Positions 9,530 through 57,119 of a DNA stretch of 64,000 bases are shown piece after piece. How positions within the stretch are numbered: position 1 is the stretch's first letter; every line of letters starts with the position of its first letter. A program made the translations under genes and the position numbers. The notes under the pieces were generated by a model. The model saw only the letters and a list, made by a program, of their open reading frames with translations. It had not been told where the DNA came from and searched no databases. Origin of the DNA: Raja brachyura (taxonomy: Eukaryota); the NCBI GenBank assembly GCA_963514005.1, contig OY740811.1, positions 27,838,001-27,902,000 on the forward strand. Reading direction: 5' to 3'.

Positions 9530-10020
9530 AGTAGCTACATTTTCAAAGTTCTTCATTAGCTGTAAAGGGCAATAGTACAGCCCAAATTTACTGAAAATAC
9601 TTTTGTAAATCGAAAGTTAGTGTTTCTCTGTTTGTTTACAACATTGTTTTGGTAAATAAAGTATCCAGATTAGGCACAGCAAAGTCCAACAAATAAGTCG
9701 TGTACCAATCAGTTTTAATGAAAACGGGTAAGAAATGAATATGGGCCACAATAACATGAGAATTTACCTCTTATTCCTCAAGGAGTCCAGTGGTAATTTA
9801 CTTTTCAATGAACAAGTAGGTAAAGACTATTGTTGAACAGGTCATCTAAAAATTGTAACTTATGGAAAAAGCAGCAATTTAGGTCAAACATTGAAGCGTC
9901 AGTCCAGAACCAAGCCATGTTGTTTTGCCCAGACCTGATTAGAGCCTAAACCACAACGTTCCTGATCTTTGGGAATCTGGTGCATAAAGGAGAAGGCTAA
10001 TGAGAGATGTTTTCATTGGT
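9530..10020 (-). mobile_element. Ancient Deu-domain SINE, long degraded copy
   Basis: Colinear with the reverse complement of the Deu-SINE layout (gcacagcaaagtcc..., gtcatctaaaa..., ccacaacgttcctga). Confidence 0.5.
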
Positions 10021-10169
10021 TAGCTCCTACGACTGAGTGTTTACATATCCACGCAGCGGGCTGTCCAAAGGTGAGACTTTCTAAGATTGGATTCATGCCT
10101 GGAGAAGGACCATGTGGTATTTTTAGTATTGAGGCCCTTTATGCTTGCTGAACACTCTAATAGTAGGAA

Positions 10170-10993
10170 GATAGTGGGACCGTAGGCTGTGCCTCTCTCC
10201 CTGTCCAGTGGTCGTCGATTTGCCCCCTCGATGGATCGTGTTGTGACTCAGACGAAGAGGTTTGGTGGCGGTGGGGGCCGAGCGCCGGCCACCGGTGGGG
10301 ACGCACATGGTGGGCCAGGCAACATCTCAGGAGAAGGATCTCGACCTGAAATGTCACCCATTCCTTTTCTTCGATGATGCTTCCTGCACCCTGTGGGCAC
10401 CCCTACAGGCCCCTGTCGGCGGGTTGGCTGGCCGCTGGGTGGGGCAGGGGGCATGGCCAACCTCCCCAGCGCCGGCGGGGGTGTGCTGTGGCGGCTTGGC
10501 TGGACGGGCAGCATTCCCAGAGAAAAGGAATGGTTTCCTCGGGAGTAGGAGCGGAGCCAGGCTGGAGCATGCGCATGCCCCCCCCCCCCCCCCTCACGCG
10601 GGCCCACCCCGGAGGTCTCCGACTGCCACTTGGGCGTAGACGGGCACCCTGGGGGGGGGGGGGGGGGAGATGGTGCGGTCCAACGGCGGCTTGGCTGCCC
10701 CTGCGGCGCTAGGGTCACGGGTTCGACCCGGGCTGCAGATGAGGCGCAGGTCTGTGCGCGCTCTCCCGTCTCCCACTGTCATCTGCCCCCTCTCTCTCTC
10801 TCTTGCTGTTACACCTATTCTCCCGCTACCTGACACCCCCATTCCTCAGATTAAATATTTTCACACATAAATGATGAATAAAGATAAGAATTTACATACA
10901 GTTTATGCAGCCAGCGGTTAGTTTTTCTTTATAGCCAGTGACCTTTGACAAATCCCATGATTCTTTGCGGTTTTCGGAATACCAAACTCGCTT
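10170..10993 (-). mobile_element. GC-rich composite TIR element, truncated copy, inverted relative to 55881-57119
   Basis: ~10730-10993 is the reverse complement of ~55881-56200 and ends ...ggaataccaaactcgctt|AT. Shares a captured hammerhead-type piece at 10315-10385. Confidence 0.8.
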
Positions 10994-13626
10994 ATTCAAA
11001 AGATCACCTAATATTCAACCAATCAGCAGTACCCTTACCGGTCAACACTTTAATAAATGAGCATCCAGAGCAACATGACACCAGACTGGATAAGACAAAG
11101 AAACCACCTGCTGTTAACCTCAAAGTCACAAAGAAAACTTTGCAAACTACTCCTAAGTGTTGACATATTCCAGCTTTGACTCTTCATGCACCAGTACTTA
11201 TTAAAAATGTGCTAGTTTTTCCCTCAAACTTGGAACTCCAATTGCATGTTCTTAAAGCTTTTACAGAGCAGACCTGACTTGTGAATAGACAAAGTGTTCA
11301 TATTACTTTTCTATGAGCTATTTTTATGCAGGTATTAACATGTTTCTTTCAAAGGGGTATCATGCTTGCAGAAAAATGTGTACAATATGGATATATATAT
11401 TAAGAATTTGTACAGAAAACCTGTGCATGGGGATTTTTATACTCCTGGATTATTAGTGCCAAATTCACATTTAAAATAATTCCTCATTATGAAAAATAGG
11501 AATCTCAGCTGTACAGATACCGTGGAGTCGGTTTTAACCTTTGAGGTACTTAACATTTTAAGAGATTAATCAAGCTGTAGATAATCATGTTCTCTGGTAG
11601 CTTGGTAGACACTGAAATCTGTAAGGAACCTGAGTGCCTTGTTTCTCCAGTTATTTTTATTTAAGTTATGTTGGCCAGAACTCAGAATTTCTGCCAGGAC
11701 AAAGTCAAAAAGTACTGTATTCTGCATGTAATTGCCTGTCTGCTTTCAGGTTTCTTAACCTTCCAATCCTACCTCACTCTCATCATGGCCCCAAATAAAT
11801 AAGGGAGCCCAGGTGTTATTTGTGGAACCAGGATTTGTTTCTGTTGTGACACTGTGCCAGCAATGGTATGATTCCAGAAGTTCCAAGCTTAAAGTTGGTG
11901 TAGTTTACTTCTGATGTTCCAGCAGCTTTTAATCTGATTTTTAACATCCGTCTCTGCCACACTATTTTAATCAGACATTCCAGATGTAGCAGAAATATCC
12001 ATCAATAACATTGGAGGAGGGGAGATACTGTAAATAACTACACTCTGTACTTCAGAGAATTAAATGGCTCCACCTACCACACAGGTTTTTATTAATTCTA
12101 CTTCTGGAGGCATTTGCCACTCATAACTTAGGCTTATTTTGTGGAATTCTCAGACAGGGTCACATTCAGATGTATGGTTCACATATGTATAATCTAGGGG
12201 ACTAATGACACACACGTCTCTCAAGTATGATCTAATGACGGGATGTCTATCCCCAAATCTGCAATTTGTTCTTGCAGAGGGTGCAATGTCTACTACATTG
12301 TTCCAGTTAAATGAAAATAAGCAAGTTCAGCTCAGGTTTAGTTTACCAGGGAGAGGCATTTGGTTACACATCATTTTATAGACATGGGGTTTCAAGATTC
12401 TGTGATTTGCAAGTTGGATTGTTTACACAAGAATAAATATAACACCGGGAAAACAGTGTTGCCATTTGTGCCCAAGAAATGTAAAAGTCCCTAAAGATTG
12501 GGTTTGGTTCATTCTTGAACAAACACAAATCTGGATTATTTTAGATGACAAATGTGATTGCACTGACTCCACACGGAGAAATTCTTTTAGTTGATCACAG
12601 ATAAATCCTTAACTGCTTTCATCAAAATAAACATTCCAACTGAAGTAACAATAAACTTACAACGCAAAATGAATCATTTACAGAATTAACTGCTGATAAT
12701 AATAATTGATAATTTAATACACTCAAGTTACATTCCCCTGTCAATGCCTTTATTAATGTTGCCTCAGCATTGGTCATACAAGCTTGTTAAGCATTCATCC
12801 ACAACAGTGACAACATTCTTTGGTTACACAAACTACATTTTGAGGATAAAAAGTGGTTAGAAAACAATGAGTGGGAATGGGTTGGAATTAACCAAATCTG
12901 CCCCAACTTTACCATTTGACTTAAGTTTGTAATATCTGCCTGATTCCATATGATAAGGTACAATGAATTCAAAAGGCACTATTTATTAAGGGTTAGTTAA
13001 GTAAAACACAATCTACTTAGACAGTTTTATTTACTGATCGCCCACATATATTTGAGGATTAATATTTGACAATTAATATTTCAGTCATTAAAATTGGAAG
13101 CTATTGTAGATTGCAAATTGCCTTTCAAATAAGATATACCTGAGAAATGTGTAGTATGATCCCAAAATGTAATCTTTCCTTTCACCCTTTCCTTGGAATT
13201 ACATGGTAATATTCATTTGGTAAAATCAACCTTAACATCAGATTTTTAGCCTTGGTGCTTTGCTAAGACTGAAATTGCACAGACTGGTACTTTCTCAAAA
13301 GTCTGGCATTGGCAGCCTAAAAGTGGGCCTGCACACACTTTCTCAGAAGCCTGCCACTGAATAGATCTCAAGACAGCTTAAACCAACAGTCTATTCTTAA
13401 CAATACACCTCAGGATCTTGAACAGGGTCAGGGCATTGCACTCCGAATCTAAAATTCAGTCCAGTGAATGAAATGGTGTATATATGAATACTACATGGCA
13501 CATTTAGAATCACTGACCAGTGATAAATTTCCAGGCAGGCATCTTTCCAATTCAAATTAGAGCTATACTGACAAAAAGAGGGAAGCATACTTGCAAGTCC
13601 AGAGCTTGCAACGCAGATACTCCAAT

Positions 13627-15130
13627 AAGTAAGTTTATAGGCCAAGTATTCACATACAAGGAATTTGCCTTGGTGCTCCGCCCACAAGTAACAACATGAC
13701 AAACAGTGACAGTTACGAATGACTCAGAAAACACTAAACATTAATAATAATAAGACATTAATGATAAAACGCCATTGATCAAGCATGTGATCCAACAAAA
13801 TACCAGATCAAAGGGAGGCTACAGATTTCTGCCTGTTGAGTAGAGCAACTACTCTTGGATAAAATTGTTTTTATGTCTGGCTGTGGCAGCTTTGACAATC
13901 CAGAGTCACCTTCCAGAGGGAAGTGATTCAAAGAGTTTGTGGCCAGGGTGAGAGGGGTCAGAGATGATCTTGCCCGCTCGCTTCCTGGCCCTTGCAGTGT
14001 ACAGTTCATCAATGGAGGGAAGGTTGCAGCCAATAATCTTCTCTGGCGATCGGATGATTCACTGCAGCCTCCAGGTGTCGTGCTTGGTGGCTGAGCCAAA
14101 CCAGACCATGATGGAGAAGGTGAGAACAGACTCTACGATGGCCATGTAGAATTGGACCATCATTGCCTGTGGCAGATTGTACTTCCTCAGCTGCCGCAGG
14201 AAGTACATCCTCTGTTGTGCCTTTTTGACTGTGATGGTAGCCCCCCACTTAAGGTCCTTGGAGATGATGGTTCCCAGGAACTTAAAAGACTCCACAAATG
14301 TGACTATGGTGTTGTTGATGGTGAGTGGGGTGAGGGGAGGGGGAGCTCTCCTAAAGTCTACAATCAATTCCACTGTCTTAAGAGCATTGAGCTCTAGGTT
14401 GTTGCTACAGCACCAGGACGCCAGCTGTGACACTTCCTGTCTGTAGGCAAATTCCTCCCCATCCTGGATCAGTCCAATCAGGGTTGTGTCGTCCGCAAAC
14501 TTGAGAAGCTTTGCAGAGGTGTCGGTGGAGGTACAGTCGTTGGTGTAGAGAGAGTAGAGGAGAGGAGAGAGTACGCAGCCTTGCGGTGCTCCTATGCTGA
14601 GTGTTTGCGGGTCCGAGATGTGCTTTCCCAGCTTCACATGCTGCTTCCCCTCCGTCATTAAGTTGGTGATCCACTGACAGAGGGGTTCAGGCACAGTCAA
14701 CTCAGAAAGGTTGGAGTGTAGTAGCTCTGGCATTGAATGCAGAGCTAAAATCAACAAACAGGATCCTCGCATAGGTCCCCTGACAGTCCTGGTGCTGGAG
14801 GATGAGGTGCAGGCCCAGGTTGACTGCATCATCCACAGATCTATTAGCCCGATATGCAAACGGCAGAGGGTTCAGCAGGGAGTTTGTGATATTTTTCAGC
14901 TTGGCCAGCACAAGCCTTTCGAGTGTCTTCATGACTACAGAGGTCAGTGCGATAGGCCTATAATCATTAAGACAAGTAATCCTTGCCTTTTTGGGTACAG
15001 GGACAATAGTGGAGACTTTGAAGCAGGCAGGGACAGTACATGTTTGCAGGGACTGGTTAAAAATGTCTGTATAGATCAGTGCCACTGTTTGGCACAGAGC
15101 TTAAGAGTAGAGGGGGAAACATTGTCAGGT
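13627..15130 (-). mobile_element. Rex1/Babar non-LTR retrotransposon, 5'-truncated, frameshifted RT
   Basis: ORFs 14702-15085 ([19 protein letters not shown]) and 14059-14859 (GAPQGCVLSPLLYSLYT, KFADD) overlap in different frames. aagtaag tail near 13627. Confidence 0.9.
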
Positions 15131-28774: not shown

Positions 28775-28936
28775 CTTCTTATCTGGTCCACACACAAGAT
28801 CAGAAGTTGTTCAGTCAGAGATGAACACACTTCTCGGCATCTGCATACAATGGTGTCGGTCTTGCGTTTCTTGTGCGTGGTGGTGGAAAGATTGGTGAAA
28901 ACAGGGCCGCAACATGAACGCTCTTTCCTTGACCCC
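28775..28936 (-). mobile_element. Ribozyme-headed short retroposon, second family, inserted in a CR1 relic
   Basis: Ends in AAGAAG. Degenerate TSD acataattggt (28764-28774) / aaatcattggt (28938-28948). Interrupts a continuous CR1 RT fragment. Confidence 0.75.
28885..28936 (-). ncRNA. Second minimal HDV-like ribozyme (predicted, partly CpG-decayed)
   Basis: Minus strand reads GGGGTC-AA-GGAAAGA-GCG-TTCATGT-TGC-GGCCCT-G-TTTTCA-CCAA-TCTTTCC. P1 is 6 bp with G1-U, P2 is 7 bp perfect, P3 is GCG/TGC. Confidence 0.75.
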
Positions 28937-30655: not shown

Positions 30656-31685
30656 TTTATCAATATACCTACACACTATCATTGCTCTGCAACACTCCAG
30701 GTTGTACCTTAACACATATACCTTAATACATGTTTTTCATGTATTAAGGTACCCAGATTCATCTATACAATATCCTGTATTTCTGTTTCCATACTCATGG
30801 ATATCATCACATTACGCACCATTTGCTATTTTTTGCGCCCCCCACCCCCCAACATCTCTGAAACTATTTGTGCCCTCCATACAATTTGCCTTCCTACATC
30901 GTTTTATCCTATGCAAATTTGACCGTTTAGGAATGGAATTCATTGAAGAAGAATCAATGTGTAACATTTTGTCATATAGTTAAAGACCGTCACACGCACA
31001 TATGAAAAGAGTCCAGAGAGATCTTTCATTCCAATCTGTCCCATTCAAGCAATGTAAACTAAACTAGCAACCCCCTACCCCAATCTCCAGCACAGTGGTT
31101 TCCAAGGAGAACAAATCTCCTAACACAAACCATTAATTCAGGACTGCAGTGACAGTTCTAAGGAAGGTAAACCATGCCGCTGCATATGTGGCCCTTCACT
31201 GAGGCTCATAATAGGTTCCCTCTCCGTGCATGGGACTGTTACATAAACTACATTGACAGTGAACTGGAGAGTACTGCATGTCAAAGTTGTCATTCTATGA
31301 ATAAAAAACTAAACTGAGGCATGATCTTCAGTGGATCAGCTACTGGTGATGATAAAGATTCCACGGCACTATTTGATGATCAACAGAAAGTTCTCCGAAT
31401 GTTGGACAAAACTTTTCTCTATTAACCAATATCACAACAAATATCAATATACTGTTTATAATCAGTATACATATTCAAGTAATACAATAGAGCTCTAATA
31501 CTCTGGCATGCTTGTAACTTTAGTGGTGACTGACTGGTAAATAGTCCAGACTGTTGGAAATTACTGTTTATTACTTAAACACATGTTTAATTATCTTTTT
31601 TTTTCCCCTAAGATGTTAGTGTGATAATAAATTATCTAGTGAACGTGGTAAGTTTAAAAACTAACATGAGAATCGTGATCCTAGT

Positions 31686-31739
31686 GGGGTGGGAGATTGC
31701 AACCTTCACGTGGTCCATCCTGTTTCGACAAATGCAATC
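31686..31739 (+). ncRNA. Minimal HDV-like self-cleaving ribozyme (predicted)
   Basis: P1 GGGGTGG/CCATCCT with G1-U wobble. P2 GATTGCA/TGCAATC. P3 ACC/GGT. L3 TTCACGT. P1.1 G, mini-P4 T-TTCG-A, J4/2 CAAA with catalytic C at 31729. Confidence 0.82.
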
Positions 31740-31858
31740 GACCCGGCGTGCACAATCAAATAAGATCAAATAGAACAAGTTGTCCGACAACTTTAGGCTG
31801 TGCACTCAATATGAAAGAAGAAGAAGAAGAAGAAGAAGAATAATAAGAAGAAGAAGAA
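31686..31858 (+). mobile_element. Ribozyme-headed short retroposon (non-autonomous; Ingi/Vingi- or RTE-like partner inferred) with (GAA)n tail
   Basis: TSD gtgatcctagt(g) 31675-31686 / gtgaccctagt(g) 31859-31870. (GAA)n tail ~31815-31858. The 5' end coincides with the predicted cleavage site. Confidence 0.85.
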
Positions 31859-32544
31859 GTGACCCTAGTGAGGAGAACCAACAAATCTCCTAACGGGAAC
31901 CATTAATTTTGGATTGCAGTGACAATTGTAATGAAGGTAAACCATTTTATCTCTGGAGCCCATGTTAGTGTAAAGAGAGCATGGAAAACTGTTGCCCCAG
32001 TAAATAGAAAAAGAGCACAGCACAGAGAGTAAGGGGAGAGCAGAACTAGGGTTCTGGGGAGTGGATAGGGAGCACATAACTGGGGCACTGTAGTGCAGCA
32101 AACATCAACTAGTGAGCCAGGTGCCAAACTACAGCATTTCCAAACCGTCAGTCAGTGGACTGAACTTTTACTGCATGATAAATCTCCAAAAAGCTACTTC
32201 TTAAATACAGGCTTGACGTTCTCTATATTTGGTCAGCATGGTGGAAGACAAAGGGAAGGATTTGGAATTTTAAATGTTATCTTAAAGTGTATTGGTGTTT
32301 AAATATTTCACCAGCTGGATACTGGTATAAGCTGTTTTTTTTTTGCTCATGAAGTGATTGTTTCCAAAAATGAACGACAAGAAATTGAAACTGATTCTCT
32401 TAATATCCAAAAAGTTGTTAGCCTTTATTGAAAATATTCAGCAGCAGGTCATCCACAGCTATCTAGGATGAAAATTTCCAAAGAGTCACTATTCTCCAGG
32501 AGAAAACATTTATCATCACTTCAATCCAAAGTGGCAGACTGTTA

Positions 32545-43620: not shown

Positions 43621-46348
43621 CATATCTTTTCTTGTTTTTTGTTAAGCTAGATTTTCTGAATGCTGAAACTGTAATGTCAACCTTGATTACGGGTTGGTGT
43701 AAATAAAATGATGGAAAGTAGGTTTGCCTTGAGGCATGTTTGAAATATCCTGGCAAAAAATTGAGGAGGAGTACGATTGGTAGAAATAAATATTTTATTG
43801 AATAGACAGCAAAAAACTGTCCGCAAAAGATGTGATTTGTTGTAGTACCCAGAGTGAGAAGACTGTAATTCCGTAAGGTATCCTGTAAATCTGAAACAAA
43901 CTCATATAACCTTTGCCAGTAATGGCATCATACTTAAAGCCACTGTATAATCTCATTCAAATTCCTGCCAAGGATTGCATTTACCAGATGGATGATCGTG
44001 AACAGCAACAAGCCTCTACGCACGCTGTAGGTTTTTATTTATTTCTTGACTGTTCTCAAAGTGGTCTGAAAAAGAGCAGCACATACTGTGGCAGGCTTCA
44101 AGATGCCCTACCTTATTTTGTGCTATTACATTGGGTTCAGTACAACAAATATTCAATTCACAGAGATACATTCAAAAGAATGAAAATTATAAAAAGAAAC
44201 ACTGGACTAATAATCTGATCACTTTGGATACTGACCAATTAGTTTCTGAATTATAAAAAGCAGTTTGATGAATTATTGTGGAAACTTGTTCCACCAGAAA
44301 ATCTGCAGTATCAACTTGTCCTCAAGGTGAACTCCCTCTATCTGAATTTTAGTTTAGACTAAAATATAAAATCTACTTTTATTGGTATTCCTTCTGACTT
44401 AGTGGGTATGGAAACTACTCATCATACTAGGAAGCCACTTATGGTCATCCTCAAACCCTGGTCTCAGTTAGCTGATCTTAACTGGGACATGCAGCGGGAG
44501 TGCTACAATTAATACTGTATGTACTGTTTACGCTCAAACTTCTTTCACTTGTTTATTCAGCGCAGGAAGGGTTAAACAGAGGATGCATATTAATCAACTC
44601 TGATTTCCATTCCCGTTTTTTCAATAGGCAATTACTCTTGTTTCTGTTCACCTGATATTGCCAGATTGATCTGGGTTAGAGCAGTAATACAGCCAACAGA
44701 CAGACAGAAACAAGAACACTGCCTCAGTCATCAGCATCTGCATCTTACTACCACTATCACTTACATAATTCTTTACTAGATAGAAAACATTCCTCAAATG
44801 CCAAGGAACACTGAGCAAATTGAAATTTTGGAAATATACATATGTGCAAACAAATAATTGATTGTTAAATTTGTTCTGTTGGAAAAGTGTTTTGCTTTAT
44901 TGAATTACTCTGATTCATGACTGCCAATCACACCTTTGTTAACAAATCATAAAAGTGATTCTTGTGAAAAAAAACTGCATCTAAAACTTACACAGCTAGT
45001 GTTTCTACAGAGATTATTGTGATAATAACTGATAACTTTAGTAAAATCAGTGTGGACATTTTACAGCAAAAGAGTAAAGTGTGTACACATAATTTTTCTT
45101 AGCTCTGTCAGTTTTTTTAGGTAACAATTGTGAATATTTAAGAAAGAATGAACAAATTGCTTGTTAATGGTAATTAGTTTCTCCTTCTGAGGCAGTCCTC
45201 AGGATTGAGTGGCCTGTTTTTGTGGTGCACTGAAGTGACTGATGAGTCCAATGGAGGAAACCATGGACTCTTTTAAAGATTGGCCTTGCAGGGTAGATAT
45301 CAGATTTGAAGGGCTTCTATGTTCGCAACGTATGGCCTTAAATTTCTCAAGACCTGCCCGAATGCTCCTTCTCAACTTCGAATGGTTACATGCCGGACAC
45401 TCCCAAGATTCAGCTCCGATGTCGCATTTTTCTTTCATGGAGGTTTGAGCTCATCCTAGAATCTTTTTCTTAATCTCCCTGTAAATCCATTTTAATTATT
45501 ATTGTTTCAGAAGTCCCGTGTCAAGCATTTGAATTACGTGATCTGCTCAACGTAGGTAAATTAATATTGTGGGTCCTCTGTGCCAGAGATGTTGGTCTGG
45601 GAAATGGAGAGAGAGAGAGAGGGGGGGAGGAAGAGTGAGAGAGATGCACACAATTTTAACACCCTTTTATTCACGGATTTTCAGAATTTTCCCTCAGATT
45701 TACAGACCAAGAAATGGCAAGGGAGCAGTCCATGAGGGTGAAATCCCTAACAAGTAGAGCCAGTTACTGACACCTTCATCAACAGCTGAATATCTGAAAG
45801 TTACCCGCTAGATTCTGTTTGCGAGAGCACTACGAGTAGTGATTCACTCTCATCCCGATTAAACAAATCCAAAGCAAGAAATGATTAAATATAATAGAGA
45901 CGGTAGGCCTGCTGCTGAAAAGCATTGAAGTTTGGACCCTGCCAAGAACAAACCTCATGAGAATGTAAAGCATGTGAACACAATCTCAAATCAAAATGAA
46001 TTATAAAGTACAAATATCTGGAGGAATTTCAAATTTGCCATTGTTTCATGGATTAGATACTGGAACTCATTCACGTTTTTAATACATTTCTTATTACTTG
46101 AGGACAAGCAAATGAGTTCTTCACTCATTATTAAGTCAAAGTTAATCAAGTTATGTATTACATGCTGGTTTGTAGGAGCTAGTTTTGCATAAGGTTAGTG
46201 CTCCTTTTCTCCTGCTCCTAGAGAACAACAGTGGCCATGCAGCATATGTATTTCAGAGGGGGCAAATGCTTTGGGAGGCTCTGAAGCCATGAAATGTGGA
46301 TAAAGTGGAACTTGTACATGCAGTGTATTTGGATTTCCAAAAGATATT

Positions 46349-47703
46349 CTGAGGGATAGGATCTACAGGCATTTGGATGGGCAAGGGCTGATTAGGAATA
46401 GTCAGCATGGTTTTGTACGTGGGAGGTCGTGTCTCACAAATAATATTGATTTTTGTGAAGACGTGACCAAAAAGGTTGATGAGGGCAGAGCTGTAGATGT
46501 TGTGTACATGGACTTCAGTAAGGCGTTCGACCAGGTTCCGCATGGTAGGTTGCTCTGGAAGGTTAGATCGCATGGGATCCAAGGAGAGATAGCTGAAAAG
46601 GATAGCAAATTGGCTCCATGGAAGGATGTAGACAGAGGGTAATGGTGGAAGGTTGCTTCTCTGACTGGATGCCTGTGACTAGTGGTGTGCCTCAGGGTTC
46701 GGTGTTAGACCCATTACTGTATGTCTTCTACATCAATGATTTGGATGAGAACATACTGTACAGGGCAAGATTAGTATGTTTGCTGATGATACAAAAGTTA
46801 GTGGTTTTGCAGATAGCGAAGATGGTTGTGAACGATTGCAGCAGGATCTGCAGGGTCGATTGGCCAGGTAGGCAGAGGAATGGATGATGGAATTTAATAC
46901 AGAGAAGTGTGAGGTGTTGCATTTTGGAATGTTGAACAAGGGCAGGACCTACACAGTAAATGGTAGACTTCTGGGTAGTGTTGTAGAGCAGAGGAATCTA
47001 GGAGTACAGGTGCATGGTTCCTTGAAAGTCGAGTCGCAGGTAGATAAGGTGCTCAAAAAGGCTTTTGGCACTTTGATCTTCATCAGTCAGAGTATTAAGT
47101 ATAGAAGATGGGAGGTTATGACGCAGTTGTACAACACGTTGGTGAGACCGGATTTAGAATATTGTGCTCAGTTCTGGGCACCATGTTATAGGAGAGATAT
47201 TGTTAAGCTTGAAAGGGTTCAGAAAGGATTTACGAGGATGTTGCCAGGATTAGAGGGTGTGAGTTATAGGGAGATGTTGAGCAGACTGGGTCTCTATTCC
47301 ATGGAGCACAGAGGGTGAGGGGAGATCTTATAGAGGTATACAAAATCATGAGAGGAATAGATCGGGTAGATGCACAGTCTTTTGCCCAGAGTAGAGTAAT
47401 CGAGGATCACAGGACATAGGTTCAAGGTGAAGGGGAAAAGATTTAATAGGAATCAGAGGGGTAGCTTTTTCACAAAAAGGGTGGTGGGTGCATGGACAAG
47501 GTGCCAGAGGAGGTAGTTGAGGCTGGGATTATCCCATCATTTGAGAAACAGTTAGACAGGTACATGGATAGGACAGGTTTGGAGAGATATGGACCAAGCG
47601 CAGGCAAGTGGGACTAGTGTAGCTGGGACATTGTTGGCCGGTGTGGGCGAGTTGGGCCGAAGGGCCTGTTTTCACACTGTATCACTCTATGACTCTATGA
47701 ATC
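46349..47703 (+). mobile_element. Relatively young CR1/HER1 LINE, 5'-truncated
   Basis: QHGFVRGRSCLTN, YMDFSKAFD, SGVPQGSVL, LEYCAQFW and an (actctatg)n tail. Confidence 0.92.
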
Positions 47704-53067: not shown

Positions 53068-54188
53068 AATGGGATCCAACGAGAGATAGCTGAATGGATA
53101 GCAAATTGGCTCCATGGAAGGAAGCAGAGGGCGATGGTGGAAGGTTGATTCTCAGACTGGAGGTCTGTTACTAGTGGTGTGTCTCAGGGTTCGGAGCTGG
53201 GCCCATAACTGTTTGTCATCTATATCAATGATTTGGATGGGAACATACAGGGCAATATTAGCAAGTTTACTGATAATACAAAAGTGAGTGGTTTTGCAGA
53301 CTGTGAAGATGATTGTGAAAGATTGCAGCAGGATCTGGATCAATTGGCCAGGTGGGCGGAGGAATGGTTGATGGAATTCAATACAGAGAAGTGTGAGGTG
53401 TTGCATTTTGGGACGCCAAACAAGAGCAGGACCTTCACAGTAAACAGTAGGCCTCTGGGTAGTGTTGTAGAACAGGGGGATCTAGGTGTACAAGTGCATG
53501 GTTCCTTGAAGGTCGAGTCGCAGATGGATAAGGTCAAAAAGACTTTTGGCACTTTGGCCTTCATCAGTCAGAGTATTGAGTATAGAAGTTGGGAGGTCAT
53601 GTTCCAGTTGTACAAGGCGTTGGTGAGACCGCATTTAGAATATTGTGTTGAGTTCTGGGCACCATGTCATAGGAAAGATATTGTCAAGCTTGAAAGGGTT
53701 CAGAAAAGATTTACGAGGATGTTGCCAGGACTAGAGGGTGTGAGCTATAGGGAGAGGTTGAGCAGGCTGGGTCTCTATTCTATGGAGCTTAGGAGGATGA
53801 GGGCGATCTCATAGAGGTATACAAAATCGCGAGAGGAATAGATAGGGTAGATGCACAGCGTCTCTTGTCCAGAGTATGGAAATTGAGGACTAGAGGACAT
53901 AGGTTCAAGGTGAAGGGGAAAAGATTTAATAGGAATCCGAGGGGTAACTTTTTCACACAAAGAGTGGTGGGTGCATGGACAAGCTGCCAGAGAAGGTAGT
54001 TGAGGCTGGGACGATCCCATCGTTTAAGAAACTGTTAAACAGGTACATGGATAGGACAGGTTTGGAGGGATATGGGTTAAACGCAGGCAAGTAGGACTAG
54101 TGTAGCTGGGACATTGTTGGCCGGTGTGGACAAGTTGGGCTGAAGGGCCTGCTTCCACGCTGGATCACTCTGTGACTCTATGACTCTA
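53068..54188 (+). mobile_element. Relatively young CR1/HER1 LINE, same subfamily as 46349-47703
   Basis: ORF 53233..53814 is an RT C-terminus (KFTDNTK, EFNTEKCEVLHFG, RPHLEYC). gactctat tail. Confidence 0.92.
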
Positions 54189-55880: not shown

Positions 55881-57119
55881 AAGCGAGTTCAGTATTCCGA
55901 AAAATACAAGAAATCATGGGATTTGTCAATGGTCACTTGCTATAAAGAAAAAGCAAACAAAGTGCTGGCTGCATAAACTGTGTATAAATTCTTATCTTTA
56001 TTCATAATTTATGTGTAAAAATATATTTAATCTGAGGAACGGGGATGCCAGTTAGCGGGAGAGCGGTGTGGAACCGCGAGAGAGAAGGGGCAGATTCGTG
56101 TGGAACAGGGGGAGAGGCTGGACCGGTGGAGAGACATTCTCGGCAGCTGCGCGCAAACAGACCCACGCCTCATCCGCAGCCAGGATCGAACCCAAGTCGC
56201 TAGGCCGCAAGGGCTGCCAAACCGCCACTGGACCGTTCTCGTTCCACTCCCCACCCCGAGTGTCAGATCCCCACCCAGGGGGGCAGCCTGAGACGTCCGG
56301 AGCTACCCCAGACTGACGGGACAGCGGCCCGGAGCAGTGGCCCACAGGCCCACAGCCAGCGCAGAGTAGAAGCGCCAACTCCACTCTAACTCCCGAGGAA
56401 CCCGCTCCCCTACGGGCTGGGGACCGCCAGCCGCACCCCCTGCCCCAACCAGTGGCTGCCGGCCAACCCCCCCAGCACCGGCGAAAGCTGAGCACCAGCC
56501 ATCAACGGTGATACACACAAAATGCCACAGCAACTCAGCGGGACGGGCAGCATCCCCAGAGAAAAGGAATGGGTGACATTTCGGGTTGAGACCCTTCTCC
56601 AGAGATGTTGCCTGACCTGCCGAGCCACCGCAGCACCCCGTGTGCATGACCGGCGCTCGGCCCAGAGGGGGCCAACCGACAGGCACTAGACAAGGCGAGA
56701 GGCTCAGCTGATGGTGCGCAGCCTGCCGGGGAACATCCCCCCCGGGAGCGGAGCAGAGGCAAGCCGGAGGCAAGCCGGAGCCAGCCCCCCCCCCCCCCCC
56801 CCCCCGCCTGTTCAGGGCTGCCAGACAACCTGGCGGGACAGGCAGAGCCGAGCTGGAGCCAGCCCCTCCTCACCGCGCCGGCTGCAAGTCCGAGGCCACC
56901 ACTGCCCTGCCAGCCCAGGGCCACCCCGCACACCTACGGCAGCCCCCGGGACGGGACAGGGACGGCCCAGCAGCAACTCAACAGCGCCGGAGATCCGGGC
57001 CCGCCCCGACCACGGACGAAACGCAAGCCTGCACACAATGCAGCAGCACAGGTACTGAGAATGTTTATAGCTAGTGACCCATGACCTGGGCATACGCAGT
57101 CGCAATACCAAACTCGCTT
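55881..57119 (+). mobile_element. GC-rich non-autonomous DNA element with bipartite imperfect TIRs
   Basis: AAGCGAGTTCAGTATTCCGA matches the reverse complement of the right end, AAGCGAGTTTGGTATTGCGA, at 17/20. Subterminal 55931-55946 matches 57064-57079 at 15/16. Both ends are flanked by AT. Confidence 0.82.

Follow-up and report, generated by a model that had tools for sequence, protein, structure and literature searches.

How does a retroposon of about 135 bp without coding capacity spread through a genome, and what sets its 5' end? This question is raised by an element at 31686-31858 of a 64,000-nt stretch of the Raja brachyura genome (contig OY740811.1, positions 27,838,001 to 27,902,000 of the forward strand), hereafter the window, in whose coordinates features are given. 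[quoted passage not shown] In this study, we found that it probably arose by internal deletion from a Vingi-type long interspersed nuclear element (LINE), as a short derivative headed by a CPEB3-type ribozyme and moved in trans by the LINE protein. We put the probability of this reading at about 0.8.

The ribozyme-like head and the copies of family A

The element is bounded by direct repeats of 11-12 bp with one mismatch, the last position being a shared G. Its head (31686-31739) fits the HDV double pseudoknot, with canonical pairs at 17 of the 17 positions of P1-P3, two of them G.U. P1 (31686-92/31715-21) has 7 bp and opens with G1.U36, J1/2 is 2 nt long, P2 (31695-701/31733-39) has 7 bp, and P3 (31702-04/31712-14) has 3 bp and encloses a 7-nt L3 (31705-11). 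P1.1 is the single pair C22-G37; a 6-nt loop replaces P4 and is followed by C31729 and AAA. The preliminary description of this locus had proposed the same pseudoknot (P1, P2, P3, L3, P1.1 and J4/2) and a target-site duplication (TSD) ending at G1, and we recovered each helix and the duplication at their places. The predicted fold is in the register of the CPEB3 ribozyme (G1.U36, U20, C22-G37, G25). The catalytic C, U20, G25 and G1.U36 are features of HDV-like ribozymes (PMC4836649; here and below, papers are cited for the parts accessible to us). The cut is predicted directly 5' of G31686, with C31729 as the predicted catalytic base.

A descriptor built on known core motifs matched the window once, at the head at 31686, and never matched shuffled sequence (n=100, 12.8 Mb). 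Because this descriptor was composed after the sequence had been seen, independent support has to come from covariation. A comparison with covariance models of HDV-like ribozymes had been suggested in the preliminary description. In a 91-nt stretch, the sole Rfam match was HDV-F-prausnitzii (RF02682), which covered exactly the 54 nt of the head, but weakly, with a score of 13.5 bits against a gathering score of 44 (E 1.3). Five Rfam matches on 801 nt were dismissed as chance.

Covariation was counted by parsing each helix against the window copy, as MAFFT cross-family alignments were out of register; L341 was left out. The comparison included family B (L358, L360-L398), a second, independent ribozyme-headed family of about 165 bp with at least 1,015 copies. 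Its fold has 52 nt with a 6-bp P1, shares L3 and the 6-nt loop with family A, and starts at its own G1. Family B kept 16/16 pairs with 9 two-sided changes. In two metagenomic LINEs, the pairs kept were 17/17 with 10 two-sided changes (L190) and 16/17 with 7 (L194). The C at the catalytic position was retained in all three, and within family A no compensatory change was informative. The pairs kept between families with 7-10 two-sided changes speak for conservation of the helices. These results indicate, from sequence comparison, that the HDV-like fold is real and backed by covariation across four families.

We then examined the copies of family A. The family comprises at least 11,286 heads genome-wide, counted with a 25-nt head pattern that had to match exactly (control 0), some of which are segmental duplicates. 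A 33-nt 3' pattern matched 2,665 times (control 0), and one full 54-nt variant is present identically in 364 copies. The 5' ends were counted in the first 90 loci listed on contig C1, picked by the 3' pattern only, since the 30 best DNA matches favour full-length copies; two loci in this sample (L040/L041) seem to be one duplicated locus. The copies began at nt 1-3 in 71 loci, at nt 4-10 in 2 and further inward in 9, while the rest were 6 short 3' pieces and 2 LINE 3' ends. A well-scored TSD of 8-16 bp was found in 59 of the 82 aligned copies (10-13 bp in 48 of these), and in 43 of the 59 it ended no more than 1 nt from G1. Thus, the expectation that genomic copies start at G1 was borne out. 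All 20 loci picked by the head pattern ran into the same short body, some of them shortened. Contigs of four public runs (four organism codes) also carry family A, with loose ends stacked at 31685-86, and two of the runs carry the flank of the window locus as well; these contigs have no bearing on RNA ends.

The copies diverge from the majority sequence by 8.5% on average (7.1% outside CpG), and the window copy by 5.0%. The core was intact, with every core pair and base, in 21 of 74 copies. The C at the catalytic position was present in 68/74, U20 in 69, G25 in 61 and G1.U36 in 59. The window copy has a private G.U pair in P1, seen in 3/74 copies. Its 46-nt tail is long for the family, as 69/90 copies have at most three further GAA units. 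Therefore, the length of 173 bp given in the preliminary description is correct for the span in the window, but the unit is about 135-140 bp. The marks of an RNA polymerase III (Pol III) short interspersed nuclear element (SINE), namely A/B boxes and a head from tRNA, 7SL or 5S, are not seen in the element. As had been claimed, it contains no Pol III A/B boxes (four regular expressions), and no tRNA was found.

Several smaller observations concern the same copies. About ten pairs of opposed heads, 1.4-1.6 kb apart, lie in G000:C1:14794439-14952002, which is probably a tandemly amplified segment and slightly inflates the head count. The base directly 5' of the element is often T, in 20/30 family B copies and frequently in family A too, and is usually the last base of the TSD (L369-L398; L031-L060, L257-L316); this suggests a target preference. 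At L117:1454-1510, the ribozyme has an internal inversion bounded by both P2 strands.

The partner LINE

The preliminary description had suggested searching for an autonomous Vingi, Ingi or RTE element sharing both ends. The upstream walk started from L037, a LINE 3' fragment that shares the 3' end of the element. A LINE of about 3.09 kb, L152, carries both the ribozyme head at its 5' end (94% over nt 8-60) and the shared 3' end. It consists, in order, of the head, a short 5' untranslated region (UTR), and a decayed frame for apurinic endonuclease (APE) and reverse transcriptase (RT), which closes with a Cys/His motif and a stop codon before the 3' UTR and tail that the element shares. A domain search of L152 gave APE and RT matches, and L152 is colinear with aa 19-1019 of P0001 without an extra domain. 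P0001 is an intact relative of 1,019 aa with APE, RT and a weak zf-RVT match, 69% identical in the RT region.

The window element matches this LINE at both ends. Positions 31693-31762 share 91% identity with the opening 70 nt of L152, and the 3' match from 31787 is identical to L064 at 37/41 positions. The head is also joined to the LINE open reading frame (ORF) in L151, L153 and L157, starting at nt 5-10. In L158, a head that begins at nt 1 is fused to the final 1.5 kb of the LINE, an internal deletion of intermediate size, and several variants of the deletion junction are present among copies. The short element thus consists of about 77 nt of the LINE 5' end, about 16 nt of filler and about 35 nt of the LINE 3' end. 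Since both ends, ribozyme included, come from the LINE, the element is, as far as its sequence tells, a bipartite internal-deletion derivative of the LINE of about 3.1 kb with APE and RT. Of the earlier proposal of a ribozyme-SINE that borrows the RT of a LINE through its tail, the multiple copies, the non-autonomy, the start at the predicted cut, the missing Pol III boxes and a 3' end in common with a Vingi/Ingi-type LINE are supported, but the ribozyme end is LINE-derived too (L152, L158). An inverted piece of the ribozyme lies against the LINE 3' part in L063, L071 and L155, presumably as twin priming on one RNA containing both parts would produce. Minus-strand matches to the head were likewise seen in L130 and L146.

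Vingi elements have APE and RT without RNase H, unlike Ingi (PMC13708176). The partner shows this architecture, since its one compact ORF encodes APE and RT but lacks RNase H, as read from decayed copies against P0001. RNase H was found in neither P0001 nor P0002 (E 0.1), and none was given for 120 relatives among the matches listed. We therefore call the partner LINE Vingi-type, a name given by its architecture and not by a tree with labelled references. A quick tree placed the partner, L176, L190, L194 and a second family of the same genome in one 52-row clade (SH-aLRT 99), and families A, B and the others fell into one RT clade wherever a partner RT existed. The last bases of family B resemble the 3' end of a second Vingi-like LINE family (L254), which is likely its partner. 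A PDB sequence search with the RT piece of the partner gave 0 matches, and no relative was found in the viral contigs searched.

The CPEB3 ribozyme and other known systems

The Rfam model of the CPEB3 ribozyme (RF00622) gave 41 genome matches among the 59 candidates scored, 32 of them above the cut-off (best 65.8 bits). Family B copies elsewhere in the genome passed the cut-off at 35.1-37.4 bits, and 10 of the 12 lower-scoring matches examined belonged to family B. On a metagenome contig, a Vingi-like LINE scored 55.6 bits at its 5' end (L190:2106-2189); L191 and L192 also matched, and L210 is truncated. In a relaxed scan of 21 metagenomic relatives with upstream DNA, complete folds lay directly before the ORF in 4 (L190-192 and L194, two families), and 0/643 control windows matched. 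Partial folds were seen by eye in L176 and L233. Several of the RF00622 matches in this genome stand at the head of further LINE-like families; behind the L341 head, for example, lies a frame with 33% identity to P0001. A CPEB3-type ribozyme looks like a common 5' feature of the partner LINE clade. As a side observation, the genome contains at least three more head types (L337-L357, L359), with a full P4 and 37-66 bits on RF00622; L337-L339, L341 and L352 lead into a Vingi-like ORF, and the others end after about 80-110 nt.

The supplement of PMC5786205 gives the 5' ends of Vingi-2_Gav, Vingi-4_Crp and Vingi-1_BF, a segment of Vingi-2_SPur, and SINE2-1_AMi. Compared by eye with the Rfam CPEB3 consensus, nt 2-41 of Vingi-2_Gav are equal at 38/40 positions without a shift of register, and agreement extends to 14 nt surrounding its catalytic C. 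Because RF00622 matches LINE 5' ends and the Vingi-2_Gav 5' end resembles CPEB3, we propose that the CPEB3-type ribozyme is a 5' hallmark of Vingi LINEs. The window element would be its most reduced carrier (54 nt, no P4), having spread self-cleaving RNAs, possibly active, by the thousand through a single genome, and the mammalian CPEB3 ribozyme would be the exapted 5' end of a Vingi element or Vingi-derived SINE. We consider this proposal rather probable, on the strength of these sequence likenesses. Several Repbase Vingi 5' ends and the body of the alligator SINE2-1_AMi in the same supplement look near-identical to the CPEB3 ribozyme, on which the paper does not comment.

The head of the window element shares with the Rfam consensus of the CPEB3 ribozyme the register to nt 37 (G1.U36, U20, G25), an identical 7-nt L3 and the single G after P1, but differs in the sequences of P1, P2 and P3 and in having a 6-nt loop instead of P4. 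Family A is not recovered by the CPEB3 model, and CPEB3 is a single conserved intronic locus (PMC4836649, PMC8233481). The CPEB3 ribozyme was said not to be found outside mammals (PMC8233481). In its accessible parts, Kojima 2018 (PMC5786205) names RTE, Ingi, Vingi and R2 as sources of bipartite derivatives; Vingi is absent from its list of clades with a ribozyme, and CPEB3 is nowhere mentioned. Folds resembling CPEB3 are already known from non-mammals; neither a Vingi ribozyme nor the specific link between Vingi and CPEB3 was found in the literature searched, which left repeat databases and patents out.

The principle of a ribozyme-headed non-autonomous retroposon is already published for SIDE, NARTc and RIME in insects and trypanosomes. 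Like the R2 SIDEs of Drosophila, for which ribozyme cleavage has been demonstrated (Eickbush and Eickbush 2012, PMC3414825), the window element has the 5' HDV-like ribozyme of a LINE and its 3' end, is non-autonomous and would depend on target-primed reverse transcription in trans. Its make-up is of the SIDE type, with a LINE 5' end, the 3' end and tail of the same LINE, and its own amplified family with TSDs. R2 SIDEs are specific to ribosomal DNA, uncommon and have a large J1/2 (PMC3414825), whereas family A is dispersed in more than 11,000 copies, its partner is of the APE type and its ribozyme has 54 nt. Likewise, NARTc, RIME and SIDER of the L1Tc/Ingi group are short derivatives of a LINE with APE and RT that retain its 3' end and, at the 5' end, an HDV-like ribozyme of some 77 nt (PMC4035085). 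However, L1Tc encodes RNase H, which the partner LINE here does not, Pr77 is a proven promoter, and the hosts are trypanosomatids. Non-autonomous Vingi derivatives such as those of Vingi-1_EE are also internal deletions of a compact single-ORF LINE with APE and RT and without RNase H, for which no ribozyme is described in the accessible text of Kojima 2018 (PMC5786205); Vingi-2_Gav has 3,128 bp there, against about 3,090 bp for the partner LINE. The absence of a P4 helix recalls the minimal and theta HDV-like ribozymes found in gut phages (PMC10879173), but about 99% of those are in phages, and here the P4-less form heads eukaryotic retroposons. What sets the element apart is how small and how numerous it is, together with its tie to CPEB3.

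Proposed cycle, alternatives and other features

On the preferred reading, a deletion fused the first 77 nt or so of the LINE to its last 35 nt or so and tail, as the sequences of both parts record. A source copy would be transcribed, most likely within a longer host transcript. The compact ribozyme, whose fold covariation supports, would cut directly 5' of G1 and give the same RNA 5' end regardless of the upstream sequence. The APE-RT protein of the LINE would then bind in trans to the GAA tail and the 3' UTR common to both elements, as LINE biology suggests, perhaps assisted by a stem pairing both ends, and target-primed reverse transcription would leave the observed TSDs of 8-16 bp. Inserted copies decay neutrally, with about a quarter keeping an intact core.

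The possible stem was examined in several copies. The stretch that directly follows the ribozyme on its 3' side pairs with the 3' UTR over 10 bp in L007 of family A (L007:1555-1632; z -4.42), over 12 bp in family B (L373:1551-1665; reached in 0/500 shuffles in both copies) and over 10 bp in the full-length L233, whose arms are 3 kb apart (2/500 shuffles). The pairing is weak in the window copy (7 bp, 21/500 shuffles, z -1.16). The stem is therefore regarded as a candidate recognition signal and not as a clade-wide rule.

A number of results weigh against the preferred reading. An intact LINE ORF was not seen among 152 matches, where the longest open frame was 526 aa. G1 was kept in 0/4 near-full-length LINE copies examined, which start at nt 5-10, and the Vingi-type name itself rests on architecture. 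No site in the whole window reached the Rfam gathering score, nor did family A. The descriptor found no match in 17/21 upstream regions, some of them from truncated or distant LINEs. Nested folding of the head yields P2 and not P1; this method cannot form both and is uninformative here, since it cannot represent a pseudoknot. CpG sites in L3 decay much like those elsewhere in the element, and the helices within family A carry no signal of selection. The pairing of the ends is not significant in L152 (8 bp, 45/500 shuffles), and the stem is absent in L210 and L176. Finally, the uniform 5' ends cannot separate cleavage from a fixed transcription start, because any 135-nt template copied to its end gives them. 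The stronger point for cleavage is that each family begins at its predicted cut while helix sequences and P1 lengths differ between families.

The transcription start is the substance of one alternative, in which the 5' 77 nt would be a dual element like Pr77 of L1Tc, an internal Pol II promoter acting at or near +1, with the ribozyme as a back-up or mainly as protection of the RNA end. On this view, the element would carry a promoter of its own. A single 77-nt segment of L1Tc acts as ribozyme and as internal promoter (PMC8256844), Ingi with its promoter-ribozyme Pr77 is the sister clade of Vingi (PMC13708176), and the retained LINE segment here is likewise about 77 nt. The more than 11,000 copies also require abundant germline RNA. 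We nevertheless regard this alternative as rather unlikely, as the fold is kept with full covariation across families with little shared helix sequence, which points to a constraint on RNA structure. It is moreover compatible with cleavage and contests only the source of the transcript.

The fold could instead be real but inactive in family A, with its one-pair P1.1 and no P4, and serve only for protein binding or stabilisation, as a structure taken over from the LINE. The low Rfam score of the family A head, the inactivity in vitro of some well-folded SIDER ribozymes (PMC4035085) and the link of a weak P1.1 to slow cleavage (PMC13635239) would fit this idea. We think it improbable, given that the catalytic C is the majority base of family A and kept in family B, L190 and L194, that families with 7- and 6-bp P1 each start at their own G1, and that HDV-like ribozymes without P4 are active (PMC10879173). 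Capture of an unrelated ribozyme or small-RNA head onto the LINE 3' tail, as a chimeric SINE, might explain the filler of some 16 nt, which has no direct match in either end of the LINE. This account is largely refuted and very unlikely, because the same head lies directly upstream of the LINE ORF in L151, L152, L153 and L157 and the LINE also gives the 3' end. A chance fold in an ordinary repeat would agree with the unremarkable minimum-free-energy z-scores of the head (1.06 for a 57-nt piece, -0.62 for a 130-nt piece), but is refuted by the covariation in four families, by the lack of matches in 12.8 Mb of shuffles and by the family B scores above the RF00622 cut-off, and its probability is negligible.

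If the internally deleted Vingi-type derivative with a cleaving head is correct, it offers a directly testable origin for the CPEB3 ribozyme and its missing outgroups. The ribozyme is now tied to a clade whose UTRs serve RNA-based gene-writing platforms (PMC13708176), and a cleaving 5' UTR and a stem joining the ends would bear on template design. The same features would also bear on why few LINE clades yield bipartite derivatives, which is unexplained according to the accessible text of Kojima 2018 (PMC5786205). If the fraction of 21/74 intact cores holds genome-wide, there would be thousands of potential cleavage sites, predicting their depletion from the sense strand of introns. Natural folds of 52-54 nt without P4 are also simple substrates for structure-function work.

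The features of the window are collected in Table 1. The family B copy in the window has the same 6-nt loop as family A, a CpG-decayed L3, a GAA-type tail and a decayed TSD.

Table 1. Coordinates of the element, its parts and the family B copy in the window
Feature	Position	Strand	Basis or remark
5' target-site duplication, 11 bp (12 with shared G)	31675..31685	+	one mismatch against the 3' copy
Putative 54-nt HDV-like ribozyme fold	31686..31739	+	helix parse, descriptor, Rfam
Segment from partner LINE 5' end (ribozyme and start of 5' UTR)	31686..31762	+	L152, L158
3' domain closed by stem of LINE 5'-UTR and 3'-UTR sequence	31746..31808	+	7 bp remaining here, 10 bp in L007
Filler at deletion junction, apparently a local duplication, differing among subfamilies	31763..31778 (approximate)	+	
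Segment from partner LINE 3' end: last codons, TAG at 31794-96, short 3' UTR	31779..31812 (5' boundary approximate)	+	
(GAA)n tail, 46 nt, expanded in window copy	31813..31858	+	
3' target-site duplication	31859..31869	+	direct repeat of 31675-85
Family B copy, ribozyme-headed mini-retroposon	28775..28936	-	52-nt ribozyme fold at 28936-28885

A Pfam search of 78 of the 88 open frames of at least 88 aa in the window found an RT fragment and no host gene. A scan for sigma-70 promoters was set aside as irrelevant to a eukaryote. Fragments of unrelated LINE reverse transcriptases lie at 14059-14871 (-), 46304-46639 (+) and 53209-53814 (+). Two kilobases, 10001-11000 and 56001-57000, are rich in GC and CpG (GC 0.57 and 0.66, CpG observed/expected about 0.6) and are possible promoters.
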